64,000 nt of DNA from Lama guanicoe (taxonomy: Eukaryota), in the NCBI GenBank assembly GCA_013239625.1, contig MU053588.1, positions 2,924,508-2,988,507 of the forward strand, given 5' to 3'. The notes below the pieces were generated by a model that worked only from the letters and a program-made list of their open reading frames with translations, was not told where the DNA came from and did not search any database. This document shows, piece after piece, positions 22,531-61,105 of this stretch (position 1 is the first letter of the stretch; every line of letters begins with the position of its first letter). A program made the position numbers and the translations under genes.

Positions 22531-24565
22531 AATGAGTGTGAATTTTTACATTTTGTTTTGTTTTATTTTGTTTTGTTTTTCGCTTCAGTCCTGGATCTGA
22601 CTTCATCCCTGGAGAGTCAGCCATGGAAGAAGTAAAAGATATGACATCTGCTCACCCCATACATCAGAGGTGCTCCTGGTCAGTGAGCATGAGTCACGGT
22701 GCCCAGAACCACCAGCCATCTTCATGAAGTCCCCACCCTCCAGCCAGACTGGCTTATGTGACCTGTGGCCATAGCCTGCAAGATAGCAAGATTCCCAGGA
22801 GGTTTTGAGGAAGTGAAAATGACTGAGGCCCCTGGAGAGGCTGAAGAGAGGAGGGAAGTGCAGGGGGAAGTGACAGAGTTGACGGCTCGGATGGCCTAAG
22901 AGTGTGTGGACCCCCGAAAACAGACAAAAGGGGGAATACCCTGGGGGACTGGGGATAAACTTGAAAGGAGGGTAACTCCACAGGAGTCGCATCTATTTCC
23001 ACACAGTTATCCTTCTTCATGTATTAAAGGCTTCCATAGGATAATATGCTCCTTCAAACACTAATCGAAACTGGCCCTTTTTGGACACATCTTCCCATCA
23101 ATGGTTGGTTTGATGTTAAACCTACTAGGATTCAGAAATTGTGTATGAAGTCACTGTGCCCGAATTAGTCCAGTTTAAAGACTTCTTTCCCTCGGGAGCA
23201 TGTAACACATTCCACTTAAGAACACCTGACAAAGTGTTGACAATATTGTAATATGATAGGGATCTAGGCTGAGGCTCAAGACTGAAAGGACTATCAGGAC
23301 TTGCTCCTTCTGTTTTTGTTTTAGAGTGACAGGGCTTCTCATTGATGATGAGGTTGATATTTCAAACCCTAGGTTTGAGTGTCGAGGCTGAAGAGTCAGA
23401 TCATTGCAGGCTGCATGTTTCATGGTCAGCCCCAGGAGAGGTTCCTCAGCGGGTGGTTGTTCCTCTCACATCTTTTCCCCTCCAGTCTCTATTGACCCCT
23501 GCAAGGATTCCTCCTGCGACTTCAGAGATCCATCACTACCCTGCACCCCTGCCATGTGTATCCGGAAGGGCAGCCTCTGCTAAGCTGGTCTCTCAGACCA
23601 CTGGCAGACAGTGATGTCAGGAATTAGGGACTTGCAAGCAGCACAGACTCCTGGGGAAAGGGAAGGTCAGCTCAACAAGCCCAGGGCGTGACTCCAGTGC
23701 GGGGATTATGGCCCAGGCCTGTTTGTGAGGTCCAGAAACTATAGTAAGAAATGTGTCCTGGAGAAATGGAAATCAAAACTACACTGAGATATTACCTCAC
23801 ACCCATTAGGATGGATCCAATTAAAATACATAAAAACACAAGTGTTGGTGATGATGTGGAAAAATTGGAACCCTTGTGCACTTTGGTGGGAATGTATAAT
23901 GCAACAACTGCTTTGGAGAAGAGTATAGTGGTTCTTCAAACACTTTAACATAGAACTACCATATAATCCAGCAAGTTCACTCCTGGGTATACGCCCAAAG
24001 AATTGAAAGCAGGGTCTCAAAGAAACATTTGTCCACACGTGTTCATAGCAGCATTATTCACAACAGCTAAAATGTGGAAGCAGCCCACGTGACCACTGAT
24101 AGACGAATGGATAAGCCAAATGTGGTATATATGTACAACAGAATTTATTCACAACAATGTGAAAGTCTTCATTACCAGTGAACTGTACCCTTAAAAATGG
24201 TTCAGATGGTAAATTTTATGTTATGTGCATTTTGCCACAATAAAGAAAGAAAAAAAAAGGAATCATGTCTCTTAATGTGAATTGAAATGGTATCCTTGAA
24301 TCCAGGGTGAAGATGGTCCCAAGTGCCTCATCTGGCTCTCTTGGTGCTGATGATGGTTGATGTTCTGAGCAGTTGTCTTGCTTCTATTTCCCATGACTTT
24401 GCAGCACCCACAAGCTCTGAGAGGGTTCCCTTGCTGCCCTAACCTGGGGGTTGTGCCTGGGAAGAAGTGAATCAAGGGAGACTGCTTTGTACCCCTTTGA
24501 AAAATGTTCTCCTTGCCTCAACCATCTGTTAATGTCATGGGTAATTCTCCTCCACCCTCCTCTTC

Positions 24566-27500: not shown

Positions 27501-27758
27501 TTATACGGTTAATTGCAAGAATGGGGCTATTAGCTAATAAGGCTCAAACAACAAAACGCAAGGAATCATCTGTTTGGAACAGATCATGTTACTGACACTC
27601 GTTGACCTTGGATTTACGAGTTACCTTGTTAGCCTAGGAAACTAACACTACACTTCAGACTTATGAGTCAGCCCAGCAGAACTTATGTCAGTAAGCCGAC
27701 ACTTGTTACACTTAGATTTATGTGTTACATAGTTACCCAGTCCGGCTTTTCCTTTTCA
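24566..27758 (-). mobile_element. ERV copy B (duplicate of copy A)
   Basis: Matches copy A apart from a 1-nt insertion at ~26245; LTR 27365-27758. Confidence 0.92.
24955..25391 (-). pseudogene. ATXN7: Captured circularly permuted ATXN7 fragment (copy B)
   Basis: Same as copy A. Confidence 0.92.
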
Positions 27759-30700
27759 AGAGGAGTGATTTCAAAGAGCCCAGGCCTTTGCACCTTCCCA
27801 TGCATAGAAAAGTGCTAAATTCCTTAGCTGGAGATATCTGGTTTTCTTTAAGTAGCAGTAATCTCTTGATGTTCCGACTAGCTAGTCTTTGTTGGTAAAA
27901 CGCATATATCCTGCCTTCGATCTTGCCACAGCGGAACAGCCTCTGAGAGGGAACTGAGATGCTGTGCCCCAGGCTCCAGTCCTCAGGAAATCCGCCAGGA
28001 GACATATAAATCTCAACTTTTTCGCTGTGCATTTATTTCAGTCGACAACCCTAAGTTTCTTCCTTAAAAATCTTTCATTAGCTTAAACACATAACCCTTA
28101 AGCAACGTACAGTTCACTGGCTGTCTACATATTCTCCTCGTTGTGCAACACGTCTCTGGTACAGTTTTTAATCAGTAAAACTGAAACTTGACACAGAAGA
28201 CACGACTCTCCTGGCCGGCAACGGCTTTCTCTGGTGACTGAGAAACCTGCAGGAGTCGTACAAGGGAAGACCTGGTGCTGGGCAGCTCTCCCTGTAAGGG
28301 AGACTCACTCGTTTTGATGACACATGAGAGGGAACGGAGACCGCCCTGGGGGAAAAGCTTAGACGCTGAGCTCTCAAACAGCACATTGACCCACCACAGG
28401 ATCTTCACTCCCGACTGTATTCTCACAACCGGCTTTAGAACAGGAACTAAGCGTTCAAAACAGAAGCAAAAGGAGCAACAGATTGCCAGTGTAAAATTAC
28501 ACTGACAAGTACTTTCTTCATTGGGAATTAAAGGAAGTCTCGCCCTGAAACTCACTAAGCTGGGGCTCTTTTCTTCTGTATGCAGTTAAGGGTAAAAAGC
28601 CTGGTAAAAGCAACTGTTCAGAATTCTGAACTGACACAAACAAAAATCCTTCTACAGGGAACTTGTATTTCTCTTCCTGTGCCTTTGAAATGTAAATCCT
28701 ATCTTTTTCTGGGTGGGGCGTGTGTGTGTGCGCGCGCGCGTGTGTGTTTAAACAAACAAACAGACACCTAGGTCTCTGCCATACAAAAGGTCCCCATATG
28801 ACGTATATTTGTCAGCCAGGCAAAGAGACTGGGATTCTGAGCATTCCTTTGTCCGATTCTACCCATTCTCAGGCTTTTTGCCACGTCAGTCTTCATTACG
28901 TCATCCTGGACCATGAAGGCCTTTACTTCTGGGGAGTAAAATTTGAATCTTCTTAAGGCAGAAGCCCCTACTGTCTCGTGGGGAAGCCTCTTCCTCTTAT
29001 GGCTTTCAAATCACTAAGCATAAATCTAGCTCATTCATGGCCAGAGGATGGATCTTTGAAGTTCGAGAAACTTCTAAATTGGTAACATTTGAGAGAGTTC
29101 TCACTATCAACGGCAGTTTCATACCTATAAATTTCAATCAAACTTAAAGACGGAAAGTATCTATCTAATGGTTAATCGAAGAAAGCCCTTAGTTTAAAAT
29201 GACAGGAAAAACTGCCTTGGGAGGCCTTATTTGTGTACTCCCGTTCCCCTCAATGGGCCTTACAGTTGCCAATACAAATATTAGAATAAATAATATGAAT
29301 GTAGGCTGACTAAGTCAAATAAAAAAAAAACTGATGATTTTAAAGGGACTGATCTCAAATGGATTAAAAAAAAACCTCTAGATGCTTATTGAAAGTGGGG
29401 TAAATAAAACAGACATTTACAGATTAAAATTCAAGTTTTGATACTATGCTGTGTAAGCTTAAATAAGTCAATGGTCAATGGGACCCTCTGCTGGTCCCCA
29501 ATATTAAAGTCCAAACAAGTCCTCTCTATCTACCCCCTCTAGGGTCCAGGGCAGAGATCCTGGGGCTGGACACCGGACAGATCTTGTGGTGCCAAGCGCT
29601 GCCAGCCTGGGCCCTGCGACCCCCAAACTTCCATGCATTTATTTCAGTCGACAACCCTAAGTTTCTTCCTTAAAAATCTTTCATTAGCTTAAACACATAA
29701 CCCTTAAGCAACGTACAGTTCACTGGCTGTCTACATATTCTCCTCGTTGTGCAACACGTCTCTGGTACAGTTTTTAATCAGTAAAACTGAAACTTGACAC
29801 AGAAGACACGACTCTCCTGGCCGGCAACGGCTTTCTCTGGTGACTGAGAAACCTGCAGGAGTCGTACAAGGGAAGACCTGGTGCTGGGCAGCTCTCCCTG
29901 TAAGGGAGACTCACTCGTTTTGATGACACATGAGAGGGAACGGAGACCGCCCTGGGGGAAAAGCTTAGACGCTGAGCTCTCAAACAGCACATTGACCCAC
30001 CACAGGATCTTCACTCCCGACTGTATTCTCACAACCGGCTTTAGAACAGGAACTAAGCGTTCAAAACAGAAGCAAAAGGAGCAACAGATTGCCAGTGTAA
30101 AATTACACTGACAAGTACTTTCTTCATTGGGAATTAAAGGAAGTCTCGCCCTGAAACTCACTAAGCTGGGGCTCTTTTCTTCTGTATGCAGTTAAGGGTA
30201 AAAAGCCTGGTAAAAGCAACTGTTCAGAATTCTGAACTGACACAAACAATGCCTTTGAATGTAAATCCTATCTTTTTCTGGGTGGGGCGTGTGTGTGTGT
30301 GCGCGCGCGCGTGTGTGTTTAAACAAACAAACAGACACCTAGGTCTCTGCCATACAAAAGGTCCCCATATGACGTATATTTGTCAGCCAGGCAAAGAGAC
30401 TGGGATTCTGAGCATTCCTTTGTCCGATTCTACCCATTCTCAGGCTTTTTGCCACGTCAGTCTTCATTACGTCATCCTGGACCATGAAGGCCTTTACTTC
30501 TGGGGAGTAAAATTTGAATCTTCTTAAGGCAGAAGCCCCTACTGTCTCGTGGGGAAGCCTCTTCCTCTTATGGCTTTCAAATCACTAAGCATAAATCTAG
30601 CTCATTCATGGCCAGAGGATGGATCTTTGAAGTTCGAGAAACTTCTAAATTGGTAACATTTGAGAGAGTTCTCACTATCAACGGCAGTTTCATACCTATA

Positions 30701-35749: not shown

Positions 35750-36218
35750 TGAGAAGGAAAAGACAGGCTGGGCTAACAAGCTAACTCATAAATCTAAGTA
35801 TAATGAGTGTCAGTTTACTTATTTCAGTTCTGCTGGGCTAACTTGTAAATTTAAATGTAATAAGTGTCGGTTTACTGATCTAAGTTCTGCTGGGCTAACT
35901 CGTAAATCTAAAGTTTAGTAAGTGTCGGTTTACTGGGCTAAAAAGCTAACTCGTAAATCCAAGCTCAACAATGTCAGTAACGTGATCTGTTCCCACTAGA
36001 TAAGTTCCAGGGTACTGATTCCTTGCTTTTGCTGTTCGCGACTTATTGGCTAATAGCCCCATGGTTGTAATTAACCCTATGAAACCTCATGCACGTGTCT
36101 TGGAGGTGCTCAGAGTTTCAGAGCAGAAGCCCCTCTGAGCCCACCGGTGTAATAAATCTGAGTACTCCAACCCTGTGAGTGGTGCTTGTTTCTTGGCTGG
36201 CCTGCCATTTCTGTAACA
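35750..36218 (+). mobile_element. Solo LTR of the ATXN7-carrying ERV family
   Basis: TGAGAAGGAAA...GTAACA; matches 49250-49657 and 59761-60174. Confidence 0.92.
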
Positions 36219-36229
36219 TAACCACTGAG

Positions 36230-44008: not shown

Positions 44009-44169
44009 NNNNNNNNNNNNNNNNNNNNNNNNNNNNNNNNNNNNNNNNNNNNNNNNNNNNNNNNNNNNNNNNNNNNNNNNNNNNNNNNNNNNNNNNNNNN
44101 NNNNNNNNNNNNNNNNNNNNNNNNNNNNNNNNNNNNNNNNNNNNNNNNNNNNNNNNNNNNNNNNNNNNN
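44009..44169. other. Assembly gap (N run)
   Basis: 161 Ns. Confidence 1.
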
Positions 44170-47100
44170 TTCGGAGCAGAAGCCCCTCTGAGCCCGCTGG
44201 CCTAATACATCTGAGTACTCCAACCCTCTGAGTGGTGCTTATTTCTTGACTGACCTGTCATTTCTGTAACATTTCTGGCGGCCCCAGCAAGATACAACCA
44301 CGCCGGCCCCTTGAGCCGCTGGACTGGTGGCTCTGGCTGACCGGGGGACGGGACTCCAGCAGCGAACGAGGTGGCGCCGCCCGACGGTATTCTGGGTTTT
44401 CCTTCGGCAATTCGGCCCCCGGGTGGCTGGGCTGGGCTACAACCAGAGCCAGACTCCGTGGAGGGATGGACAGACTCACCAGGTGGCCGTCCGGACAAGG
44501 TAGGAACCCCCAGGAGGAATCAGGTCCTGTCCCAGTGGACAGAAGAGGAGGCGGATCCCCTCCTACAGGAAACAGGATATTTGGATTGGTGGGAGGACTG
44601 TTGTTAACCTCTGTGTGTGTGAGTGAGCGGCCTGTGAAGCACGCGATCAGGCTCGAGTTTGTAGCTCCATGGCATTGTGCTACGGAGTTCGAGTGAGTCC
44701 CAACCTGCGGTTCCGTGGTGACCTCATATGGCTCAGGGCGCTATCGGTCCCTCAGGATCCCGATCGGAGTCAGCGGCTTATACTGACCCGCCAAAGCTAA
44801 GAGGCACCTTCGTCCCCGTGAGGTGAGCGGCCAGGCGGATAGAGCGAAAACCCTCCCTTGTCTTGTCTGTGACATCGGCATAGTGTGGCTACACTGGGAG
44901 GGAAAAGGACATAGACAGCCAATGAGTCAACGCCCCTGTGCCCTTAGAGTCTAGGATGCTATTTCTTTGAGAAAGTCTCCGATCTTACTCTCACAAAACA
45001 CCTGAGACTTATTGTTCCCCTACTGAACTGACCCAAGTAGTGCCCCTTTTGCCTAGCCCAGGACTCAAGTTTAGAAGACGAATTCCTTCAGGACCAGGCT
45101 CACCTGGCCTTGAAGGTCCTTTTTCTAGTCTATTTGTTTCACCATCCACCATCAGTCCCACGCCCCTGATACATTAGTTCAGGATATAGAGAGGATTTAA
45201 TGAAGAAAGTCCCTGGAACTGCTTGAGGCCTTGAGCTCCAGAGACATCAACTGTGACTGGAGCCCAGACTCCCTGACCAAATTAGCCTTCAAACAACTCA
45301 TAGACCCAGCAGGAGAGCAGTCTCTCTTGGAACTCCTGGGTTTTGAGGAATGAAGAAAGAAAAGATACAAAGGCTACCTTCCCAAACATCTAAAAAGAAT
45401 GGGAGGCTCTAAGTCAAAACCCACCACTCTAGACTGCATGATTAAGAATTTCAAAAAGGGTTTCTCAGGGGATGATGGAATTCGAATGACCCCTGGCAGG
45501 CTCCACACTTTGTGTGAGCTTGAATAACCAGCCTTTGGAGTCAGGTGGCCCTCAGGAGGAACTCTGGACCTAGCAACAGTGCGAGCAGTCTATCAAATAA
45601 TCACTGGAACCCCAGGCCACCCAGATCAATTCCCTTACATTGACTCCTGGCTGAATGTTGCCCAGACTCTACCCCCATGGATTCGGTTCTGCTCAAATGG
45701 ACCTGGACAATGCAAGATATGAGCAGCTCAGCTGGTCCAGGCCAAAAAGGACAGATTTAAAAAAAAGCCTATTTTCCAGGGAGACACAGAGAACAAAATG
45801 TGCCTGCCCCCTCCGTATGCCCCCGGGGCACCAACACCTCCAGTCCCACTGGAGACAGCCACCCGCTGTGTCACCACCTCCCCAACCTGAGGACCCAGAG
45901 GCAGAGCCCAGCCCCCAGCCTGAGCCGGTAGGAAGGAGACTCCGGTCAGCACAAGCCAGGAGGCCAGCACCGCCGGCCCTCCAAATGCTGCTACAGGAGA
46001 CACAAGGGCCACAGCAAGCTGGGGAGGACAGGACTGTTCAGCCCAGACACCCTGTACTCTGCTACCAACCCTTTAGCACTACAGCCCTTCCCAATTGGTG
46101 CCATCATACTCCTTCCTACTGGGAAAAGCCACAGGCATTTCAATCACATCATGGTCTAAACAAAATTAAAAAGATGAGCTTCCACACTAATAGCAGATGA
46201 AGAGCCACCGGTAAACCGGTCAGGATTTTTGGCCTGCCCTCCAAGAAAAGGAACAAAAAGTGTCGGAGCGGGCTGCGGAAGACGTCAGAGGGAGCCACAC
46301 CGAGCGGTGGTGGCAGGCACAGCAGCAGCAGCCCCCGCAGCCCCGGCACCGCCCCCAACTCAACTGCCGCCACCACTGCAATGGCAAGTGTCGGGGAGCG
46401 CCGGCCCCTGCCCAGTCCCGAAGCGATGCTGGGACAGTCATGGGGCTCTGTCACGAAGACATGCCAGTATTTGGTCTCTGTCCAGCCCATAATGATTTCT
46501 AGTTGGTGGTGTGTGACGACTGTAATCAGGCCGTCAAACCGCAGGCTCTGATCGACCTCGTAGAGTCTGTCTTTGATTCTCACCGGCCCACCCGGGAAGA
46601 TGTTCGCCAGACGGAGGAAAAGAGACACATTCTCACTGAAGCATGAAAATGGCTGCAGGGCCGAGCCCCCAGGGACACACTGGATGTTGAGGGGTGGGCC
46701 ATGACATGGGCCCCTGACACCAGACCAGACTGGGACGTTCTCTTGGAGTCCTGGCTCAAAATGTAGGGCTATGGCAGCACGCTATGGCCTATTTGTCTAA
46801 ATGACTGGACCCTGTGTCATCAGGATGGCCACCCTGTCTACGGGCCCTCGCTGCCACAGCCCCCTGGTCAATGAGGCAGACAAACTCCCACTGGTACAGA
46901 CTTTAAATGTAAAAGTGCCCCATTCTGTGGTGGCTCTGAAAAACGGTCCAGATTACAAATGGATAACTAACACAAGGATGACCCACTACCAGGGGCTTCT
47001 ATGTAAAAATTCAAGAGTCCGTCTAGAGACTGTGCAAACTTTAAACTCAGCCACATATTTGCCTGAGGAGGAAGGGCAGCCTGACTATGACTGTAAGGAA

Positions 47101-49657
47101 ATCTTCAAGGAAGTGTATGTGAGTCTGCAAAAGCCAGACCTGAAAATTTTCACAAACAGCAGCAGTTACATGCAGGATGGACAACGGCGAGCAGGTTACG
47201 CTGTAACAACAACCCGAGAGGTAATAAAGACAGAGTCCCTTCCCCCAGGATGGTCTGCTCAGCGAGCAGAGATTTGGGCAGTGGTGCAGGCACTAAAGGA
47301 AGGGAAAGGAAAATGAATCAATATATACACGGATTCCAAATATGCATTTGCAACCTTGCATGTACATGGAGCCATCTGTAAGGAGAGAGGACTCTTCACT
47401 GCTGGGGGAAAGGAAAGGAAAAACAAAGAAGAAATTTTAGTTACTGGAGGCAGTATGGGGTCCCCAAAAAAGTGGCCACTATTCACTGTAAGGGACACCA
47501 AAAAGGAAATGACCCTGTGAGCCAGGGGAACAGGCTGGCTGATCAAAAGGCAAGAGAAACAGCCACCAGGGAACACCCAGTAATTAAAATTATGGCAGTG
47601 CCAGAGCTCCCCACTGCCCCAGAATATAGCCACGACGAAAACAAGTGGGCACAGGGTGAAGAAGGAAAGAAAAGAAAGGATGGATAGTGGATCATGATGT
47701 ATAGAAGGGTTTTCATCCCAGAAGGACTAGCTTATTGTATAGTCCAGCAATACCATGAAGCCACACATACGGGAAAAACAGCTTTGGAGGCCCTCCTAAA
47801 GCGATAGTTCCTGATTTATCATCTCCCTGCTCTGTGTGCATCAGTCTCCCAACACTGCTTGCTCTGTGCTCAAAACAATCCAAAACAAGGGCCCACTGGG
47901 CCAACAAGAATACAACGATTCGGATTGACTCCCTTTCAAAATTTAAAAGTGAACTTTACTGAACTTGGGTACAGTAAGGGATATAAGTACCTGCTGGTTT
48001 TCATCTGCACCTTCACAGGGTGGGTAAAACCTAACCCACCAGGACAAAAAAAGCAAGGGAGGTAACAAAGGCTCTCCTCAGGGGTGTCATCCCTCAGTTT
48101 AAAATGCCTACTTCCATCGAGACTGACAACAAACCCACCTTCATGGCAGAGATTGTACAGCAAGTGGCAAAGACACTAAAAATCTGCTGAAACCTACACA
48201 CAACATACCGGCCTCAAAGCTCAGGGAAGCTGCTAAAGCTGCACTAATCATCCCTTGGATCCACTACTCCAGGGTTAAGAGAACGACTTCACCTCAGACA
48301 AAGGGTCTCTGGAGAATTGAGAACATCCCAGGAGACCCGCTCAAGATCAAGATCAAGAAGGACCAGAAAAAGATCGATGAGCCCTGCTCTAGCCACATCC
48401 AGAAGCTGGCTAGTCAACACACGGCCAAAGCTTGAGAAAAGGTCAACAAAACTGTTAAATATATTCCTCTTGTGCTCCCTTGCCTCTTTCCTTGTTTGCT
48501 ATACTAGCCTGTGTATTAGCAGTGGGGCTGGCCAGCACCACCCCTCCTGACTGGAATATAGGCCATAGGATCCTGATAGCTATTATATACCTTGTTATAA
48601 CTAGTGCCATCACTGCAGCATTATGTCTAAGATAATCATAAGGCTGATGTTACTGACGCTAATGCCCTCACTCCCCTTGCTAGCGGGACTCAGAATAACA
48701 GCAGGGGTAAACACAGAAATTGGTGGCATAGCTTCATCCTCTTATTACTATTACCAGCTTACAGGTGAGTTCAGCCAGGATCACCAATGAGTAACAAAAA
48801 CCCTGGGAGCTCTGCAAAGCCAGATTGACTCTCTGGCCAAGGTGGTCTTACAAAACAGGAGGGGTCTTGACCTACTGAAGGCCAAAGAGGGGGGACTATG
48901 CCTCTTCCTAAACGAAGAGTGCTGTTTTTATGCCAATCAATCAGGAATTGTCAGAGGGATGATTCAAGAGTTACAAGACAGAGTGGAAAAGAAAACACAT
49001 ATTTTAGACAAGAGCCCATGGACAGGCCCATGGGGCTGGACCTCCCGGCTAGCATTGTTCATAAGTCCCTTGCTCCTGATTTTTGCAGTTCTGCTATTTG
49101 GGCCCTGTATCCTAAACTTCTTGACCCGCTTTGTCCGTGAGCGGATAGAGGTTATAAAATTTCAAACGTTAGCCTCCAATTATGAGCCCTTGCAACAGAT
49201 AAGTGATGATGCTTACTCCAAGAGTTGTGAAAGCATGAAGAGGGGGGAATGAGAAGGAAAAGCCAGGCTGGGCTAACAAGATAACTCATAAATCTAAGTG
49301 TAATAAGTGTCAGTTTACTGATCTAAGTTCTGCTGGGATAATTCGTAAATCTGAAGTTCAGTGTCAGTTTACTGGGCTAACAAGCTAACTCGTAAAACCA
49401 AGCTCAACAAGTGTCAGTAACGCGATCTGTTCTGAATTGATAAGCTCCAGTGTACTGATTCCTTGCTTTTTGTTGTTTGAGCCTTATTAGCTAATAGCCC
49501 CATACTTGTAATTAACCGTATAAAACCCCCGCACAAGTCTTGGAGGTGCTCAGAGCTTCGGAGCAAAAGCCCCTCTGAGCCCAGCGGTGTAGTAAATCTG
49601 AGAACTACAACCCTCTGCGTAGTGCTTGTTTCTTACTGGACTGTCATTTCCGTAACA
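44170..49657 (+). mobile_element. ERV copy C: partial 5' LTR (to 44271), PBS, gag with ATXN7 insert, deleted pol, deleted env, 3' LTR 49250-49657
   Basis: RNase H RAGYAVTT..SAQRAE; IN fragments; TM motif VLQNRRGLDLL...CLFLNEECC; PPT GAAGAGGGGGGAA. Confidence 0.95.
46126..46546 (+). pseudogene. ATXN7: Captured circularly permuted ATXN7 fragment (copy C)
   Basis: Same motifs; putative back-splice junction 46153|46154. Confidence 0.92.
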
Positions 49658-52014
49658 AGAGGATAAATTTTCTTAAAATGTTAATCCGCCTTCAGTAATG
49701 GATTGTAAAGTTTCTTTTACCCCATAAGTTATCTGTTCTGCATTTACCTTTGAAATATTTTCTTGTTAATGAATAAATAGTTTTTCACATTAATCTATGC
49801 TTTTACCTGACCAAATGTTTCGAAACCTTTAAACAAGCTTCCTAAATATCAAATTTTGATTAGAGTTCTTTTGACCTCCAGTTAACTTTGGGATGCTTCA
49901 AAGGGCCCCTGAAACATGTCAAAGAGAGTTATTAAACTAACTAGACATACTTGGTATGTTAAATTACTTTTAAAAAATTGCCAAGTAATTCGAGATAAAA
50001 CTTTGACTATATTGTGGAGATAAAAGTCACTAATATAGTTATACAAAAATCTAATACGTATCTGTCTTAATTCTAATTTTACCTTGAAATTTTGTATGTC
50101 AGAATATCCATGTTGCTTGTCAATTTCATTCTAATCTAATCTTTAACCATGTCATTTTAAGTCTTGTCATTTATATAAACACATTGTTTTACTCAGGTTT
50201 TATAAAATGAAAATCTTCAGGAAAATTTATTTAAAAAGGGACTTTTAACCAAATATGTTCCTAATAACTAACTTTTATATCATACCCACTGAACTGGGTA
50301 AATTATAAAACTCTAATGGAAGCCTGATGAATTCATCCAGATAAACAGAAATTAATTACATGGAATTGAATTAACTGAAAAATATGATAGATAATCTTAG
50401 TTTTCTTTTTTGAGGTTTTTGAGAAACATATTGGCCTTTATGCTTTATTTTCCAAAATAACCCTTTACTCTTATTCTATAACCTACAAGTTGATAAAGTA
50501 CACCTTTGTAGACAATGATGAAACATCTTTCTCTCTCTACTTGATCATTCCAGAATTTAACTTCTCTAGCTGACTCCCCTGAGGATTTGAGGGTTATTGA
50601 AACCAGATTACAATTAGTTATACAGATCATTGTTTTAATTTTGTTTTTGATTCCAAATTGTTATGCTTTCTATGACTTTATTAATGTTACAAAGTGTATT
50701 ACTACTTTTACTATTTTATAAGATTATTCTTAACTTTCCCAATGTGTGACTTGGTGTCCAACAAGATTGATGATGGCTAAACATCTTAAAGAAACAGAGC
50801 ACAATTATAACCCTACATAGAATAATTGTAATAGTGTGATTTTAGTTATAGGAATGAGCAACAAGTGGTAAACATTTCCTGGATCATAATAGGCTAGTAA
50901 GACAGGTTGTGAAGGAAAAGCCGGGCTGGGCTAACAAGCTAACTCTCAAATCTAAGTATTGGAATACTGATCTGAATTCTGCTGGACTAATTCGTAAATC
51001 TAAGGTAATTAGTGTTGGTTTGCTGATTCCCTGTTCATGTTTTTTGGGGTTTTTTGTTTTGTTTTGTTTTGTTTTTTTGTTTTTGCTAGCCAGCTTGATT
51101 TTCAAAGAGATATATCTGGTTTTGGAATGTTGGTTTGCTGCCTCCCTGCCTCCACCTTTGTGATAATGATGCTGCTAAAGCTCTTCCACACCTATTGGCC
51201 AAATACCCCAAGCCTGTACTTTACCCTATAAAACCCCATGCACACGTCTTGAAGGTGATCAGAGCTTCGGAGCAGAAGCCCCTCTGAGCCCACCGGCGTA
51301 ATACATCTGAGTACTCCAACCGTCCCAGTGGTGCTTGTTTCTTGGCTGGCCTGTCATTTCCGTAACAAGATGATCCAGAGAGTTTCTAATATCAACAGGG
51401 CGTGATCCAAAAACTATCACTTTGAGTGGTGTGTCAACAGAATCTTCGCCTGATCTAGGAATGAAATGGGACAAAATTGGTCATGAAATGTCTCCCAAAA
51501 TATTGGTCGAATTTAGGACTAAGTGGGATCACTGTGAATGAAAAATACTGCAAACCATATCAGTAGACAAAGAATGCTGAAGCCATCAAGTCATCAGCCA
51601 CTGCTGCCACCCCCCCACTGTGAAGACAAGTCTGCAGCCTGGCCTCTGCAGCCACTCACAATGGTGCACTCTGAGGGGACTCAGAATAATAAAGGACAAG
51701 ATACTGGCCCTAGATAGCTAGATGTTTGTCAAAGGAATGAATTCAATGAGCCCAAATGTTTGCTTCCTCCCATACATAGAAAAGCACTAAATTCTTTAAG
51801 TTGAGATGCCTGTTTTTCTTTAGATAACAAGGAATTTTTTATTGTTCCAACTACCTGGTCTTTGTTGTAAAGCTCCTATATATTCTAGCACCTCCCCTAC
51901 CTCTTTGGAGCAGTCCCACAGAGCCGATCTGAGAGGCTGTCATCCTGGCTCGAGTCCTCCCACCAAATAAAAGTAACTCTCAACTTTTAGGCTGAGCATT
52001 TATTTTTGTTGACA
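49658..52014 (+). mobile_element. 3' internal region and LTR (51533-52014) of another ERV family, interrupted by a solo LTR
   Basis: AT-rich internal sequence, LTR TGTGAATG...TTGACA with AATAAA. Confidence 0.65.
50908..51367 (+). mobile_element. Solo LTR related to the ATXN7-ERV LTR (variant U3)
   Basis: TGTGAAGGAAAAGCCGGG...CGTAACA; 4-bp TSD-like AGGT/AGAT. Confidence 0.9.
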
Positions 52015-52358
52015 ATCGGTAGTGACGATCCTGTGGTGGGCCAGTGTGCTGTTTGAGAGCTCAACATCTAAGCTTTTCCCCCAGAGTGGTCTCCGTTACC
52101 TCTCATGTGTAATCAACAGAGTGGGTCTCCCTTACAGGTCTTGGCTTCTACCACTCCTGCAGGTTTCTCACTCACCAGAAAAAGCCATTGCCGGCCAGGA
52201 GAGTCTTGTCTTCTGTGTAGAGTTTCAGTTTTACTGATTAAAAAAGGACCAGAGACATGTTGCACAACGAGAATATATAGACAGCCACTGAACTATACTT
52301 GGCTTAAGGGTTATGTCTTTTATGATAATGAAAGATTTTCAAGGGAAAAATTTGCGGT

Positions 52359-52857
52359 TGTTGACTGAAATAAATGCACAGCCTAAAAGTTGAGAGTTAT
52401 GTTTTATTTGGCAGAAATTTCTGAGGGCTTGAACTCCTTTGAGCCCAGATGACAGCCTCTCAGGTCGCTCTGAGAGGCTGCTCTAAAGAGGTAGACAAGG
52501 AGGCAGAATATATAGGAGTTTTACAACAAAAACCAGGTAGTCAGAACATTAAAAGATTACTTGTTAACTGAAGAAAACCAGACAAATTAAAGAATTTAGC
52601 ATTCTTCTTTGTGAGGGAGGGAGCAAACATTTGGGCTCACTGAATTCATCCCTTTAACAAGCACCTAGCTATCTAGGGCCAATATCCTGTCCTTTCTTAT
52701 TCTGAGTGCCCTCAGAGTGCACCATTGTGAGTGGCTGTAGAGGCCAAGGCTGGGCTGTGGGCTTGTCTTCACTGGGGGGTGTCAGGAGCAGCTGATGACT
52801 TGATGGCTTCAGCATTCTTTGTTTACTGGTATGGTTTACAGTGCTTTTCTGCTCACA
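52359..52857 (-). mobile_element. LTR, same family as 51533-52014, opposite strand
   Basis: Reverse complement starts TGTGAGCAGAAAAGCACTGTAAACCATA. Confidence 0.8.
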
Positions 52858-53370
52858 GGCTTTAAGATTCTTGGGCTTTTGAGAACCTCAGGCCTTGAAG
52901 GGGAACTTCTGGGTGTGGTAAGCACAATGTGTGGGTGGTTTGAGGTTTCATTTCCTGTTTCCAATCAGCCTGTTGCAGCCTTGGCTGGTTCCTCTTGGGG
53001 CCTCTGATTCCCTCAAGAGCCCAAGATGGGGGCAGAGGCTCAAAGCTACAGTGATTATGCTGAGCAGAGGGGCCAAGGTGGGAGGAGAGAGCTGGGGTTT
53101 GAGAGATGGTTAGAGGACAAGAGTGTGGATGGGAGGGGGTAGGTCAAAGGATTGAAGAGAACTGAGGAGGCTGAGGAGGCTAAGCTGTAAAAGAAAGGGT
53201 TAATGAGGATCAGGGATGTTGAAGAGGAAGCCAGCTTAGATGAGTCCCGAGGGTAGTTCCTATGTCTGTCACCCTGTGTGGTCATTGAGGTTCCTCTTGT
53301 ATTTAAGAGAAGTTTGCCTTTTCTGAGTGGTGCTTGTTTCTTGGTTGGCCTGTCATTTCCATAACATTTC

Positions 53371-53388
53371 TGGAGGCCCCAGCAAGAT
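53371..53388 (+). promoter_or_regulatory. Primer binding site, tRNA-Thr (degenerate copies at 44276, ~17075-17092 and ~27343-27360)
   Basis: TGGAGGCCCCAGCAAGAT just after the LTR; resembles the complement of the tRNA-Thr(TGT) 3' end TGGAGGCCCCAGCGAGAT (recalled). Confidence 0.75.
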
Positions 53389-55255
53389 TCAACAACACCA
53401 GCCCCTTTAGCCGCTAGACCGGTGGCTCTGGCCTACCGGGGGACGGGACTCCGGCAGCAAACAAGGTGGCGCCACCCGACGGTGTTCTGGGTCTCTTTCA
53501 TGATGGCAACTCAGCCCTCCCAGGTGGATGGGCTACAACCAGAGCCAGACTGGGTGGAGGGATGGACAGACTCACCAGGTGGCCGCCTGGACAAGGTAGG
53601 AACCCCTGGGGAGAATTCAGGTTCTGTCCCAGTGGACAGAAGAGGAGGCGGATCCCCTCCTACAGGAAACAGGATATTGGGATTGGTGGGAGGACTGTTG
53701 TTAACCTCTGTGTGTGTGTGTGAGTGAGCGGCCTGTGAAGCACGTGATCAGGCTCGAGTTTGTAGCTCCACGGCATTCCGCTACGGAGTTCGGTTGAGTC
53801 CCAACCTGTGGTCCTGTGGAGACCACATATGGCTCAAGGCTGTATCAGTCCCTCAGGGTCCCGATCAGAGTCAGCGGCTTATACTGACCCACCAAAGCTA
53901 AGAGGCACCTTCATCCCCGTGAGGGGAGCGGCCAGGCGGACGCAGTGAAAACCCTCCCTTGTCTTGACTGCGACACCAGCACAGGGTGGCTATGCTGGGA
54001 GGGAAAGGGACATAAAACAGCCAATGAGTCAATGCCCCCTGTGCCCTCAGAGGCTAGGATGCTATTTCTTTGAGAAAGTCTCCTACCTGACTCTGTCACA
54101 GAACACCCGAGACTTATTGTTCCCCTACTGAACTGACCCAAGGAGTGCTCCTTTTGCCTAGCATCAGACCCCCAGGATTTGACTTTAGAAGATGAATTTC
54201 TTCAGGACTGGGCTCACCTGGCTTTGGAGGTCCCCTTTCTAGTCCATTTGTTTTGCCATCAGCCATCAGTCTCATGCCCTTGGGCTAGGATATAGAGAGG
54301 ATTTAGTGAGGAAGCCCCTGGAACTGGTTGAGGCCTTGAGCTCCAGAGACATCAGCTGTGACTGGAACCCAAGCTCCCTGACCAAATTAGCCTTCAAATG
54401 ACTCATAGAGCCAGCAAGAGAGTAGTCTTTCTGGGAACTCTGGTGTTTTGAAGAGTGAAGAAGGAAAAGATATAAAGTCTACCTTCCCAAACACCCAAAG
54501 CAACAGCTCTATTATCCTTAAACATCTAGACAGAATGGGAGGCTTGAAGCCGAAACCCACCATCCTAGACTGCATGATTAAGAATTTCATAAAGGGGTAT
54601 ACAGGAGACTATGGAGTTCGAATGACCCCTGGCAGGCTCCGCACTTTGTGTGAGCTTGAATGCCGACCTTTGGAGTCGGGTGGTCCTCAGGAGGAACTCT
54701 GGACCTAGCAGCAGTGCAAGCAGTCTATCAAATAATCACTGGAACCCCAGGCCACCCAGATCAATTCCCTTACACTGACTCCTGGCTGAATGTCGCCCAG
54801 TCTCTACCCCCATGGATTCGGTTCTGCTCAAATGGACCTGGACAATACAAGATATTAGCAGCTCAGCCAGTCCAGGCCAAAAAGACAGATAGAGAAAAGA
54901 TTATTTTCCAGGGAGACAGAAAAGATGAGATGTGCCTGCCCCCTCTATGCCCCAGGGCACTGACACCTCGCATCCCACTGGAGACACTGCCACCCTCTAT
55001 GTCACCACCTCTCCAGCCTGAGTACCCAGAGCAGAGCCCAGCCCCCAGCCTGAGCCGGTGGGAAGGAGACTCCACTCAGCACAAGCTGGGAGACCGGCAC
55101 CACTGGCCCTCCAAATGCCACTGCGGGAGACACAAGGGCCACAGCAAGTTGGAGAAGACAGGACTGTTCATCCCAGGCACCCCATACTCTGCTACCAACC
55201 CTTTAGTACTTCAGACCTTCTCAAGTGGTGCCATCATACTCCTTCCTACTCTGAA

Positions 55256-55467
55256 AAACCACAGGCATTTCAATCACATTATGGTCTAAACAGAATTAAG
55301 AAAAAGAGATTCCACAAGAATAGCAGATGAAGAGCTATTGGTGAACCGGTCAGAATTTTTGGCCGCCCTCCAAAGAAAAGGAGCAGAAAGTGTCGGAGCG
55401 GTCCACGGATGACATCAGGAGAGCCCCCAAGTGGTGACAGCGAGTGGATCAGCAGCCGCGGCCGCCT

Positions 55468-55501
<34 letters not shown>

Positions 55502-55708
55502 CCAGCACAGCCTCCACCTCGGCTGCTGCCGCCGCTGCCGCAATGGCATCTGTCGGGGAGCACCAGCCCCTGCCCAGTCCTGAAGCGATGCTGGGACAGT
55601 CATGGGGCTCTGTCATGAAGACATGCAAGTATTTGGTCTCTGTCAAGCCCATAATGATTTCTAGTTGGTGGTGTGTGACGACTGTAATCAGGCCGTCAAA
55701 CCGCAGGC
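55256..55708 (+). pseudogene. ATXN7: Captured circularly permuted ATXN7 fragment (copy D), retains the CAG tract
   Basis: KPQAFQSHY|G junction at 55283|55284; (CAG)10; ASTSAAAAAAMASVGE; ends CNQAVKPQA. Confidence 0.93.
55470..55499 (+). repeat. (CAG)10, homologous to the ATXN7 polyQ tract
   Basis: GCCGCGGCCGCC-TAG-(CAG)10 in the ATXN7 context. Confidence 0.9.
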
Positions 55709-57220
55709 TCTGATTGACCTCGTAGAGTCTGTCTTTCATTCTCACCGGCCCACCTGGGGTGTTTGCCAGCTGCTTCTGACTCTTTTCAATACAGAGGAAA
55801 AGAGACACATTCTCACTGAAGCATGAAAATGGCTGCAGGGCCGAGCCCCCAGGGACACACCGGATGTTGAGGGGTGGGCCATGACACGGGCCCCTGACCA
55901 GATTGGGACTTTCTCTTGGAGTCCTGAATCAGAATGTGGGGCCATGGCAGTGCCCTGAGGCCCATTTGTCTGAAAAACTGGACCCTGTGGCACAAGTTAT
56001 GGCCACCCTGTCTACAGGCCTTCGCTGCCACAGCCCCCTGGTCAACGAGGCAGACGAACTCACGCTGGGACAAACTTTAAATGTAAAAGTATCCCACTCA
56101 GTGGTGGCCCTGATGAATGACCCCAGTTACAAATGGATAACTAACACAAGGATTACCCACAACCAGGGCTCCTACGTAAAAATCTAAGAGTTCATCTAGA
56201 GACTGTGCGAATCTTAAACCCAGCCACATATTTACCCAAATGGGAAGGGCAGCCTGACCACAACTGTGAGGAAATCATCGAAGAAGTGTACGCAAGTAGG
56301 CCTGATCTAACCGACAAGCTCCTGCAAAACCCAGACCTGGAATTCTTCACAGACAGCAACAGTTATGTGCAGGATGGAAAACGGCCAGCAGGTTACACTG
56401 TAACAACAACCCAAGAGGTGAAAAAGGCAGAGTCCCTTCCCCCAGGATGGTCTGCTCAGAGAGCAGAGATTTGGGCACTGTTCCAGACACTAAGGGAAGG
56501 GAAAGGAAGATGAATCAATATATACACTGATTCCAAATATGCATTTGCAACCTTACATGTACATGGAGCCATTTATAAGAAGAGAAGACTCTTGACTGCT
56601 GGGGGGAAAAAATCAAAAACAAAGAAGAAATTTTACAGTTACTGGAGGCAGTATGAGATCCAAAGGAAGTAGCCATTATTCACTGTAAGGGACATCAAAA
56701 AGGAAATGACCCTGTGAGCCAGGGGAATAGGCTGGTTGATCAAAAGGCAAAAGAGGCAGCCGCCCGGGAACACCCAGTTATTAAAATTATGGCAGCACCA
56801 GAGATACCCACTATCCCAGAATATAGCCACGACAAAAACAAGTGGGCACAGGCCAAACAAGGGAAGAAAGAAAAGGATGGATGGTGGATCATGATGGATA
56901 GAAGGGTTGTCATTCCAAAATGACTAGCTTATCGCATAGTCCAACAACAACACAAAACCACACATATGGAAAAAATGACTTTGGAGGTCCTCTTAAAGCG
57001 ATATTTCCTGATTTCTTGTCTCCCTACTCTGTGTGCATCAGTCTCCCAACGCTGCTTGCTCTGTGCTCAAAACAATCCAAAACAAGGGCCCACTTGGCCA
57101 AAGGGAGTACAACGACGTGGATTGGCTCCCTTCAAAGATTTAGAAGTGGACTTTACTGAACTTGGGCTCAGTAAGGGATAAAAGTACCTGCTGGTTTTCG
57201 CCTGCACCTTCACAGGGTGG

Positions 57221-58045
57221 ATGGAAGCCTACCCCACCAGGACGGAGAAAGCAAGGGAGGTAACAAAAGCTCTCCTCAGGGAGGTCATCCCTCGGTTTGG
57301 AATGCCCACCTCCATTGCATCTGACAGTGGACCCGCCTTCATGGCAGAGATTGTACAGCAAGTGGCAAAGACACTGAGCATCCGCTGGAACCTACCCACA
57401 GCATACCGGCCTCAAAGCTCAGGGAAGGTAGAAAGAATGAACAGAACTCTAAAACAAATGATAGCTAAAATGAGCCAAGAAACCCAGCTCCCCAGGGTGG
57501 ACATTTTACCCCTGGCTCTGTTGCAAATTAGATGCACCCCAAGATTTAACATTGGGTTCGCTCCCTTTGAAATCCTCTATGGGCAACCACCACCTTTAGT
57601 CAGGGTGGGAAATCCCACCCCAGAGATAGGAAATATAGGGCCCGACCAACAACCAGTGGGACTAGGACAAGTACTATGGGAAGTTTGGGGTTGGGTAATA
57701 GAGAAAACCCCCATTTTGTTAGGAGTCCAAGTGCATCCCCATAAACCAGGTGACCAAGTATGGGTGAAGGATTGGAAAAAGGAACCTCTCAAACCAACAT
57801 GGAAGGGACCATATTTAATGGTATTAACTACCCCTACATCTGTTAAAGTTGCAGGGATCATCCCTTGGATCCACCACTCCAGGGTTAAGAGAGTGACTTC
57901 ACCTCAGACAGAGGGTCCCTGGAGAATTGAGAGCATCCCAGGAGACCTGTTCAAGATAAAGATCAAGAGGGACCAGAAAAAGATCGACGAGCCCTGCTCT
58001 AGGCACACCTGGAAGCTAGCTAGTCAACACACGGCCAAAGTTTGA
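57221..58045 (+). pseudogene. pol: ERV integrase, C-terminal 274 codons open (N-terminal part broken by a stop at 57179-57181)
   Basis: SDSGPAF, YRPQSSGKVERMNRTLK, WKGPY, WIHHSRVK. Confidence 0.9.
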
Positions 58046-58256
58046 GGAAAGCTCAACAAAACTGTTAAATATATTCCTCTTGTGCTCCCTTGCCTCTTTC
58101 CTTGTTTGCTATACTAGCCTGTGTATTAGCAGTGGGGCTGGCCAGCACCACCCCTCCTGACTGGAATATAGGCCATAGGATCCTGATAGCTATTATATAC
58201 CTTGTTATAACTAGTGCCATCACTGCAGCATCATGTCTAAGATAACCATAAGGCTG

Positions 58257-59763
58257 ATGTTACTGACGCTAATGCCCTCACTCCCCTTGGCTTCACAATG
58301 CACCTGCACTGAACCAGGTGACATATCGTCCATGTACCGATGTGTATATTCAGCTTATACTTATCAACCAAGCTGATGCTATGACTCCGCTTCAGAGTGC
58401 ACATATCAGGGCAGATCCTACTGGACTGGCATGATTAAGGCTTATTATGTATCTGTCATCAAGTGCTATGGCACACCAGACAAGCTAGTGTGTTGGACCA
58501 AGCAAACACATTATGGGATGAGTGATGGAGGAGGAGTACAGGACCAGGCATGCTGACAAGTAGTCCAACAAGCAGTCCGGAGGCAACACCAAAAGTTATT
58601 ACCTACCTGGGAGCCAATAAAGCTTCTATCTTTAGCCGAGCCTCAGGATCTAGACCCACAAATAGATGAGCTGTTGGCTGCAGTCCATGGGATTCTCAAT
58701 CATTCCAATCCAGACATGGCTAAAGATTGCTGGTTATGCTTACATCCTGGCCCCATCCAGCACCTGGCTTTACCTTTGACAAACTTCACTAAGACTTTCA
58801 CTATGACTAATAGCGATGCTGCCTCTACCACTAGGAGTTCCAGGCTGAACTCCATACAGCTCACCTACAAGGCACCAGAATGTTATTTCAATAATGGAAC
58901 TAATCCTTTAGAGGGCAATCTAACTATAAAACAATGTATTAAAACCTCACACTATATGGGTCTAGGGTGCCAACCCACACAAGGATGCTGTTCTAATAAT
59001 GGTACTTATTTTGTGTGTGGCAAATTTGCCTACCAGTGCCTCCCGGCTGGTTGGGCAGAGTTATGTGCTTTAGCTTATCTCATTCCCTGAATGGACATTA
59101 TGCCTAATAATCAAAGTCTGCCTATCCCTGTCATAACTCACCAGCATCCATGAAGGATAAAATGACCCATACAACTGATCCCCTTGCTAGTGGGTCTCGG
59201 AGTGGCAACAGGGGTAGGCACAGGAATCGGTGGCAAAGCCTCATCCTCTTATTCCTATTATCAGCTTACAGGTGAGTTCAGCCAAGATCTCCAATGAATA
59301 GCAGAAACCCTGAGAGCTCTGCAAAATCAGATTTGACTCTCTAGCCAAGGTGGTCTTACAAAACAGGAGGGGTCTGGACCTACTGATGGCCAAAGAGAGG
59401 GGAATGTGCCTCTTCCTAAATGAAGAGTGCTGTTTTTATGCCAATCAATCAGGAATTGTCAGAGGGATGATTCAAGGGTTACAAGACAGAGTGGAAAAGA
59501 GGAAGCATATTTTAGGCAAGAGCCCAAAGACAGACCCCTGGAGCTGGATCTCCTGGCTGGCACCGTTCACAAGTCCCTTGCTCCTAATTTTTGTAGTTCT
59601 GCTGTTTAGGCCCTGTATCCTAAACTTCCTGACCCGCTTTGTCGGTGAGCAGATAGAGGTTATAAAACTCCAGATGTTAGCCTCCAATTATGAGCCCTTG
59701 CAACAGATAAGTGATGATGCTTACTCCAAGAAAGGTTGTGAAAGCATCAAGAGAGGGGAATGA
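58257..59763 (+). pseudogene. env: Gamma-type env pseudogene
   Basis: GMSDGGGVQD, CWLC, fusion peptide LIPLLVGLGV, LQNRRGLDLL, CX6CC; several stops. Confidence 0.9.
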
Positions 59764-60174
59764 GAAGGAAAAGCCGGGCTGGGCTAACAAGCTAACTCAT
59801 AAATCTAAGTGTAATAAGTGTCAGTTTACTGATCTCAGTTCTGCTGTGCTAACTCATAAATCTGAAGTTTAGTAAGTGTCAGTTTACTGGCTTAACAAGT
59901 TAATTTGTAAATCCAAGGTCAACAAGTGTCAGTAACACGATCTGTTTCTACAAGATAAGTTCCAGTGTACTGATTCCTTGCTTTTGCTGTTCACGCCTTA
60001 TTGGTTAATAGCCACATCCTTGTAATTAACCCTATAAAACCTCATGCACACGTCTTGAAGGTGCTCAGGGCTTCAAAGCAGAAGCCCTTCTGAGCCTGCT
60101 GACATAATAAATCTGAGTACTCCAACCCTCCAAGTGGTGCTTCATTTCTTGGCTGGCCTGTCGGTTCCGTAACA

Positions 60175-61105
60175 TAAGTACTTACTTAATTGGGAATTAA
60201 AGAAAATCTCGCCCTAAAAATAACTAAGCTGTGGCCCCTTTATTGTGTACACAGTTAAGTTAAAAAAAAAAGGTGGCCTGAGAAAAACAATTTTTTCAGA
60301 ATTCTGATCTTACAAAAACAAAAGCCTTCTAAAGGGAATTTGCACTTCTCTTCCTGCGCCTTTAAAGATGTGTTTTATCTTTCTCTTGGAATTTTGTGTG
60401 TGTGTGTGTTTTAAAAAACTTGATCTTTGCCATTGAAAAGGTACAAGTATGGTATACAAATGGCAGCCAAGCAAACAGATTGGGATTCTGAGCAATCCTT
60501 TGTACCAATTCTCAGGCATTTTGCCAACTTAACCTTTGTTGCATCAGCCTGAACCACAAAGGCCTTTACTTTTTTTGGAAGTAAACTTTTGAATATTATT
60601 TAGGCGGTACTCCCCACTCTCTTGTGGGAAAGCCTCTTCATCTTATTGGTTTGATATATATCTTCATTGATTATATACATTAAACCAATATATACCTTCT
60701 TCTTGATTGGCTTAATATGTAGCTCATTGATGGTCAGATGATAGATACTTTAAATTGAGAAACTTCTGAATTGGTAAAACTTTAGAGAGCTCTCATTATA
60801 AACAGCTGTTTAATTGGTATCTACTAAAAATTGAATTTAAGGGTGGAAAAAAATATATATCTAATGGTTAACCTAAGAACTCCTTTAGTTTAAAACAAGA
60901 AAAACCAGTTTGGAAAGTCTTATTTGTGTTCTTCCCTTCCCCTCAAAAGGTTTTAGAGGTGCTAATAAAAATATTAGAATAATTAATGTTAATTAGGTTG
61001 AGTAACACTGTAGAAAAAGTCTATAAAGATTTTTCTTAACAAGGTAAAACTAAGGGACTTATCCCAAATGGATAAACATTTTTCAGATGGTTATTTAAAA
61101 CACGA
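60175..61105 (+). mobile_element. ERV internal fragment
   Basis: Similar to 18235-19150. Confidence 0.6.

Follow-up and report, generated by a model that had tools for sequence, protein, structure and literature searches.

A circularly permuted ATXN7 segment in the gag gene of a gammaretrovirus-like endogenous retrovirus: a probable DNA copy of one turn of a circular RNA

How a segment of a cellular gene can come to lie inside a retroviral gag gene, with its exons in an order that the gene itself does not have, is the question raised by this locus. In the 64,000-nucleotide stretch of DNA analysed here (the window), positions 55267-55708 hold 442 nt of non-viral sequence within the capsid part of a gammaretrovirus-like gag. 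Its parts are, in order, the tail of ATXN7 exon 5, exon 2, exon 3, the remainder of exon 4 and the head of exon 5, the exon numbers 2, 3, 4 and 5 being those used for human circular RNAs (circRNAs). The exon order of ATXN7 in the host locus is 2-3-4-5, and the insert is circularly permuted. From comparison of these sequences, the insert very probably represents, as DNA, a single complete turn of a back-spliced ATXN7 RNA comprising exons 2-3-4-5, which total 596 nt in the host gene of today, and was produced by reverse transcriptase (RT) switching at microhomology onto a co-packaged circRNA.

The internal part of the provirus occupies 53322-59760 (plus strand; Pfam on ORFs) and starts with the last 45 nt of a truncated 5' LTR (53322-53366), which match the LTR ends of other copies. 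Its 3' LTR (TGAGAAGG...CCGTAACA) lies at 59761-60175 on the plus strand and matches LTR pieces at 49250-49657, 35846-36219 and 51202-51367 as well as the LTR pairs of five other copies. Pfam searches of the ORFs identified Gag_MA (E = 1.5e-8), Gag_p30 (4.9e-8), MLVIN_C (3.9e-19) and TLV_coat (5.6e-35), together with RNase_H and rve; by this domain set, its LTRs and the 4-bp target duplications of the family, the provirus is a gammaretrovirus-like (class I) endogenous retrovirus (ERV). Upstream of the insert, gag encodes MA, p12 and the first capsid residues, ending ..HTPSYSE (54660-55255, plus strand; Gag_MA on ORF 54660-55289), and the capsid resumes at 55709-55912 (plus strand) with LIDLVESVFHSHRPTW.., LIDLVESVF (Gag_p30 positions 17-58 on 55698-55826). 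Near 55912 the window copy passes straight from capsid into the end of RT/RNase H, having lost protease and the greater part of RT. This deletion is common to 15 of 27 insert-bearing loci; the other 12 continue like copies that have no insert (empty copies). The 5' LTR of the window provirus is not intact: the LTR piece at 51202-51367 is found farther upstream, past unrelated repeats, and the 1.9 kb separating the LTR pieces hold an inverted repeat (51540-52018 versus 52355-52849, 80%).

All parts of the insert lie on the plus strand. It is preceded by an 11-nt word, AAACCACAGGC (KPQA; 55256-55266), which is common to gag and ATXN7 exon 5 and is held once by the empty copies L016-L020. The exon 5 tail (ATTTCAATCACATTATG, FQSHY) follows at 55267-55283 and ends at the splice donor (host ..CATTATG/gtaagt, where a slash marks an exon border; alignment 28/30). 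Beyond the back-splice joint at 55283/55284 lies exon 2, a 5'UTR exon, at 55284-55380 (97 nt versus 98 in the host, L013:1001-1098, which is bounded by ..tatag/ and /gtaact); this segment is 83% alike to the host over 105 nt (BLASTN, E = 5e-25). Exon 3, the ATG exon with the CAG tract, occupies 55381-55605 (end approximate), opens GAGCAGAAAG-TGTCGGAGCGG and was recognized by BLASTN against the host (E = 9e-35) and by tblastn with a database ataxin-7 fragment (P0010). It is incomplete in the window copy: the AA of GAATG is gone, the proline-rich part is short of 53 nt and the final 40 nt are missing. A 94-nt deletion running between two AGTCRTGG words spans the exon 3/4 border and takes out the 3/4 joint; its own joint lies within AGTCATGG (55598-55605). 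The remaining 3' end of exon 4, ..GGCTCTGTCATGAAG, is found at 55606-55620 (the host exon, L014:1388-1456, ends CGCGAAG/gtgagt), and ..MLGQSW and VMGLCHED are readable between the exon 3 CAG tract and exon 5. The exon 5 head, from ACATGC.. to KPQA (CDDCNQAVKPQA ending AAACCGCAGGC), closes the insert at 55621-55708 (host tgcag/ACATGCC; 89% over 93 nt, E = 2e-31) and contains the 3' copy of the microhomology, AAACCGCAGGC, at 55698-55708. Gag adjoins the insert directly at both ends, and the alignment of the insert to the host exons is colinear throughout. The 27 insert-bearing copies, aligned to the host exons, contain no intron, exon 1, exon 6 or poly(A) sequence, and 147 of the 596 nt of the circle are missing from every copy, "full turn" being true for order and ends, not for every base. 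The CAG run reads TAG+(CAG)10 at window 55467-55499 versus (CAG)7 in the present host gene (L014:937-957) and is longer still in copy L033; repeat length has changed inside proviral copies.

A sequence-only reading of this locus had followed gag into FQSHY, a 97-nt segment, the ataxin-7 start, the CAG tract, KPQA and gag again, and our reading of the letters agrees with it. The 94-nt and 53-nt deletions, the KPQA microhomology with gag and the existence of a multi-copy family (at least 23 junction-bearing places) go beyond it. The genome searched by BLASTN with window 55240-55740 was a 2.05-Gb assembly in which the window lies on contig G000:C1236. Host matches fall on contig C4216 at 12008394-12008498, 12021637-12021922 (two rows) and 12060296-12060388, exon 2 sitting 13 kb upstream of the ATG exon, and the E-values above for the ATG exon, the KPQA exon and the 97-nt segment bear out the earlier identification of ATXN7. 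The ataxin-7 fragment P0010 carries a Pfam SCA7 domain in its precomputed annotation and shares a 90% cluster with NCBI 'ataxin 7 [Mus musculus]' entries. Its residues 1-96, 96-118 and 119-153 align to the three coding exons (exon 5 at 100%; tblastn), with no coding exon skipped and nothing from outside the circle, and it reads ..CNDCNQVVKPQAFQSHYERRH.., in agreement with the human protein order given earlier (..CNQVVKPQAFQSHYE..). Judged by these alignments, the parent gene of the insert is ATXN7. The host gene differs from all ERV copies at a G in ..AATCGCAT.. and a C in ..AATCATAGC...

The borders of the host exons define the joints of the insert. Exon 2 (98 nt) reads tttttttatag/GTCTGAAC...AAAAG/gtaact in the host, exon 3 (the ATG exon) tgtag/GAGCGGAAAGAATG...GGACG/gtgagt, exon 4 (69 nt) cctag/GGACGG...CGCGAAG/gtgagt and exon 5 (105 nt) tgcag/ACATGCC...CATTATG/gtaagt. 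The three joints still present in the insert (5/2, 2/3 and 4/5) coincide with these AG/GT borders exactly to the base and without intron sequence, as the earlier reading had held. Its two predictions about the gene were likewise borne out: the 97-nt segment is an upstream ATXN7 exon, lying upstream of the ATG exon with a pyrimidine tract and AG before it and GT after it, and CATTATG is followed by GT (the host reads GTAAGT). At the 5/2 joint the donor of exon 5 is joined to the acceptor of the upstream exon 2 (CATTATG/GTCT), which is therefore a back-splice. A template consisting of one turn of a circRNA, as proposed from the window letters, is thus supported by the splice-exact joints and the host exon order, in respect of order and ends.

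The same product would arise from a linear RNA with repeated exons (..2-3-4-5-2-3-4-5..), generated through trans-splicing or by a donor animal that carried a tandem duplication, if RT had entered at the KPQA of the second exon 5 and left at that of the first. Sequence alone cannot tell a circle from such a repetition, and other origins of non-colinear joints have been warned of (PMC4897178). A tandem exon duplication, raised earlier as the alternative to a circle, was not seen: BLASTN matched each exon at a single place in the host genome, and the exons follow one another there as 2, 3, 4, 5. Exon 1 and exon 6 sequence is absent from all 27 copies, and a circle of exactly exons 2, 3, 4 and 5 is catalogued in human, as circATXN7(2,3,4,5).1 (hsa-ATXN7_0005, hsa_circ_0002634; PMC13313202 supplementary file 4), which answers the earlier proposal to consult circRNA catalogues. 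We regard the linear repetition as unlikely. A further observation counts against the circle. A BLASTN comparison (E 1e-5) of 10 kb on the upstream side of exon 2 with 10 kb on the downstream side of exon 5 returned no inverted repeats, and no direct repeats were matched in the same two flanks at the same threshold. Pairing of flanking inverted repeats is the usual intronic signal for back-splicing, and this signal is not seen within those 10 kb.

The ends of the insert are as informative as its internal joints. The word AAACCRCAGGC, which flanks it at 55256-55266 and 55698-55708, is native to gag and exon 5 alike and occurs once in five of the five empty copies examined (L016-L020). These read ..SYSEKPQAMIDLVESIF.. 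straight through the insertion site, and the overlap of their BLAST arms is 11 nt in four copies; in L019 it is 7 nt, the 3' arm starting four bases later. At the word itself empty copies read AAGCCGCAGGC, and the original gag and exon 5 may have matched at 10 of the 11 positions. Comparison of ..SYSEKPQAMIDLVES.. in empty copies with ..SYSEKPQA[insert]KPQA(L/M)IDLVES.. in insert-bearing ones reveals no missing gag base at the site. The insert lies near the capsid N-terminus, because the Gag_p30 profile is unbroken across the site in two insert-free relatives (positions 2-144 and 2-199) and begins at position 16 directly after the insert in one insert-bearing copy with a complete capsid. When the provirus, with the insert left out, was compared with the 596-nt circle, 39 of 3,568,848 position pairs matched at 10 or more of 11 positions (fraction 1.1e-5), and the joint is one of them. 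The longest word shared with the ~6-kb provirus was at least 11 nt for 88 of 200 shuffled circles; a shared 11-nt word somewhere is unsurprising, and the weight comes from both joints lying on it.

Under the mechanism that we propose, minus-strand synthesis in a gammaretrovirus-like particle would have carried RT just past the gag word AAACCGCAGGC, and the nascent end would have paired with the same word where it occurs in exon 5 of a co-packaged circRNA. RT would then have copied the circle once, through the exon 5 head and exons 4, 3 and 2, across the back-splice and into the exon 5 tail. Back at its starting point, with the template already removed by RNase H, it would have switched to the same gag word, leaving a clean insertion without loss of viral sequence and bracketed by the 11-nt word. 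The 94-nt deletion between the AGTCRTGG repeats and the 53-nt deletion look like further RT slips; both preceded the spread of the family. Copy-choice on a circle is favoured because a single process then explains why the order is permuted, why the joints fall exactly on splice borders, why no viral base is lost and why the same word stands at both ends. We infer that the circle was packaged, that the switches took place in this order and that a helper was needed; our search found no paper on circRNA packaging into retroviral particles.

The flanking repeat can also be read as a target-site duplication, in which case LINE-1 machinery would have put a circRNA cDNA into a resident provirus that multiplied later. 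An 11-nt direct repeat does flank the insert, 11 nt is a length typical of L1 target duplications, and the site adjoins an A-run (CTGAAAAACC). Against this, the word is native to ATXN7 exon 5 and the cDNA would need to lack exactly those 11 nt, poly(A) is absent at both joints, and three of the five insert-bearing copies examined have an integration site of their own. The 3' poly(A) and the duplication of target sequence only that mark L1 processed pseudogenes are lacking, there being no A-run at the 3' joint and the flanking repeat being native ATXN7 sequence as well. According to PMC5131818, LTR-mediated retroposition is recognized by microhomology at each of the two switch points. An origin through LINE-1 is accordingly very unlikely in our estimation, and we proceed with template switching onto a circle as the preferred reading.

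The number of captures and the subsequent history of the chimera were examined in an alignment of 27 insert-bearing loci, 5 empty loci and the permuted host exons, with the tree rooted on the host. All 27 insert-bearing loci share the 3' gag joint, the 4/5 joint and both internal deletions, and there was therefore one capture. The 5' joint, the back-splice and the 2/3 joint are present in 23 of them; the other four (L032-L035) are without the back-splice through secondary deletion and nest next to L005 in the tree. These copies (C55231:31441918, C8828:126171, C7387:2415763 and C5730:1771110) form a sub-lineage of at least four members in which a further short-repeat slip, beginning within the 5' word (..AAGCCGC) and ending at a GCCGCC stretch in exon 3, has removed the exon 5 tail, all of exon 2 and the first part of exon 3. 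Their possession of the exon 3-5 part only, along with the readiness of retroviral RT to switch templates, could be taken to favour two or more separate captures of linear ATXN7 mRNA pieces that abut at exon borders by chance. The 5/2 joint is base-exact at both donor and acceptor, however, and L032-L035 nest in the full-insert clade by L005 and share its derived substitutions, which marks their shortness as secondary; separate captures are hardly credible.

A genome-wide search with a 24-mer across the back-splice found 23 places with at most three mismatches, versus one for a reversed control, and the chimera has spread to at least two dozen places in the genome. One of the 23 is the small contig G000:C48915:443-703, 100% identical to window 55240-55500, which is probably assembly redundancy or a haplotig and is not to be counted as a separate copy. 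For five insert-bearing copies, 17 kb of sequence apiece was inspected. Each is 5.9-6.7 kb long, has an LTR at both ends (TGTGAAGG..CCGTAACA) and lies in unrelated flanks, and in three of the five we found their own, mutually different 4-bp target duplications (GCCT/GCCT, TTAC/TTAT and CAAC/CAAT; none in the other two). The chimera therefore moved after capture. The LTR pairs of these copies are 93.7, 94.0, 96.2, 97.1 and 98.6% alike, and the chimera integrated repeatedly over a long period. At a generic mammalian rate of ~2.2e-9 per site per year, the oldest integration seen, with LTR pairs 6% diverged, would date to roughly 14 million years ago, as a rough figure. Copy-to-copy K2P distances are 0.14-0.18 and copies differ from the host exons by 10-15.5%. 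The former far exceed the LTR-pair distances of 1.4-6.3%, so that most divergence arose during replication of the lineage, between integrations, and dating of the capture by copy-to-copy distances was dropped for this reason.

Not every copy stems from an integration. The window carries a tandem segmental duplication (10802-19371 and 21069-29639, 99.9% alike over 8.6 kb), each unit of which contains an insert-bearing ERV fragment on the minus strand (with back-splice motifs at 15089-15103 and 25356-25370), so that DNA duplication accounts for some chimera copies. Immediately upstream of the provirus described here is a second one with an insert, at 44170-49657 on the plus strand (insert at ~46110-46578, back-splice at 46147-46161). 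It is 84% alike to the window provirus over 4 kb and colinear with it (44227-48229 versus 53322-57427), has the same capsid-to-RT deletion, and shows an assembly gap (N run, 44009-44169) where its 5' LTR is expected. In the tree, copies with the capsid-to-RT deletion are basal and copies with a complete capsid form a derived clade; in their flanks the 12 complete-capsid chimeras agree at 90-96% with the abundant insert-free form. Recombination seems to have carried the insert from one backbone to another, as the basal/derived pattern requires.

Independent sequence data were sought in public sequencing runs. Among contigs of four RNA-library runs (window 54900-56100), at least seven pieces extend across the back-splice by more than 31 letters in both directions (X15 records 1 and 2, X17 records 10 and 11, X18 records 18 and 19, X19 record 25). 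All of those listed continue into gag and therefore come from ERV copies, and an X17 contig in which 55257 is joined directly to 55705 represents the empty form. The insert-bearing and empty forms are thereby confirmed in independent data, although presence in an RNA library does not prove transcription. No contig running from exon 5 to exon 2 without gag is among the pieces listed for these four runs, and contigs cannot show rare RNAs. The possibility of an assembly artefact or chimeric contig might be raised by the fragmented state of the assembly (55,231 contigs), the gap at 44009-44169 and the redundant small contig C48915. It was rejected, its probability being next to nil, as it is already refuted by the 23 diverged junction-bearing places on many contigs and by contigs of four independent public runs, from three studies, that cross gag, the 5' joint and the back-splice. 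DNA-type runs X1-X14, with six organism codes, each contain 33-60% of sampled exact 31-letter words of window 55200-55760, which suggests that the window locus is shared by several closely related taxa.

The insert leaves gag broken in all copies. A stop lies in the exon 2 part of the gag frame in every copy except L006 (TGA, or TAA in the derived group), and insert lengths of 379-457 nt fall into all three residues modulo 3. The ATXN7 ATG is kept in two copies, the others being short of two bases there; the idea that this 2-nt loss was selected to keep gag open was dropped, since lengths vary modulo 3 and the exon 2 stop remains. Because the insert breaks gag through the exon 2 stop and through lengths that are no constant multiple of three, it is most likely a functionless passenger in a defective genome moved by insert-free relatives. 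The empty form is common: with L020 as query and 40 of 79 candidates scored, at least 34 of 45 rows, the first of which is L020 itself, span the site without insert at 80-100% identity to L020. In two insert-free copies the gag frames are open over 384 and 365 aa, which makes such copies candidate helpers, and the pattern points to helper-dependent spread with recombination between chimera and helper. Frames of 233-312 aa run from the insert into the capsid in some copies. Fv1-like gag-derived factors interfere with related viruses, and by analogy an ataxin-7/capsid fusion translated from such frames might do the same. A database search over protein lengths of 133-424 aa with a 242-aa insert-plus-capsid frame gave 10 matches, nine capsid-only, one ataxin-7-only and none chimeric, and we found evidence neither for such an interfering fusion nor for a gain to the virus from the insert.

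Several known systems bear comparison with this family. In classical oncogene capture a host RNA is packaged and recombined by RT into the viral genome, giving a defective, helper-dependent product, and the captured sequences are colinear with the mRNA and replace viral genes. The present insert resembles these captures in the packaging and recombination of a host RNA and in the defective, helper-dependent product that we propose, but it is circularly permuted and a pure insertion. The existence of circRNA-derived pseudogenes, which the sequence-only reading had cited, is documented in mouse, where 33 pseudogenes with the circRFWD2 exon 6-exon 2 joint have few adenosines at their 3' ends and LTR-enriched flanks, their mechanism being called mysterious (Dong et al., 2016, Cell Res; PMC4897178). 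Like them, our family is multi-copy and consists of circle exons only, with a reversed joint, no poly(A) and LTRs nearby. It has the features expected of a circRNA-derived retrocopy, namely a reversed exon-exon joint between a donor and an upstream acceptor and circle exons alone, with no intron, outside exon or poly(A). The published description reports no position inside a retroviral gene for the circRFWD2 copies (PMC4897178), whereas the ATXN7 insert lies in the gag capsid at an 11-nt microhomology, derives from a single capture and moved in LTR-bounded proviruses with target duplications of their own.

LTR-mediated retroposition, as set out by Tan et al. (2016, Genome Res; PMC5131818), proceeds by microsimilarity-dependent template switching on linear mRNAs, with a median microsimilarity of 6 bp and a stretch of the element ORF replaced in all of the cases described. 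The likeness extends to internal LTR-element sequence on both sides of the insert, shared words at both fusion points and further rounds as a non-autonomous element. Against those cases, the insert has a circular template order, the same 11-nt word at both switches and no replaced element coding region, nothing viral having been lost. One sentence of a 2017 review links circRNA pseudogenes with LTR-mediated retroposition (PMC5408686). The family is of the same kind as these two, with a circular template and resolved anatomy. In a search that left most subscription journals outside its scope, no paper was found on a circRNA copy inside an ERV or retroviral gene, or on ATXN7 sequence in an ERV. 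The human circATXN7(2,3,4,5).1 shares with the insert the gene, the exon set and hence the exon 5 to exon 2 back-splice; it is a present-day catalogued RNA, the insert a DNA fossil that carries two internal deletions and comes from another mammal. Supplementary file 4 of PMC13313202 lists it among nine CAG-bearing ATXN7 circles, which all contain exon 3 and span 336-1106 nt, and the best-studied human ATXN7 circle is (3,4), not (2,3,4,5) (PMC13313202; PMC10786880).

The value of this feature is that of a mechanistic record and of a fossil of a circRNA isoform. It is likely to record, base by base, how RT went once around a co-packaged cellular circRNA and rejoined its own genome at the same microhomology. 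In that case this would be the mechanism behind LTR-associated circRNA pseudogenes, and the ATXN7 exon 2-5 isoform would have been kept as a dated DNA fossil whose back-splice is shared by the host lineage and human. The family presents a complete route in its sequences, from entry and exit points and microhomology through one turn to spread in LTR-bounded proviruses. As a circRNA fossil it would be rare, attesting an exon 2-5 ATXN7 circle made in another mammal before the oldest integration seen here. The search logic, permuted exon order inside ERV genes together with one repeated bracketing word, could gauge retroviral sampling of circRNAs elsewhere.
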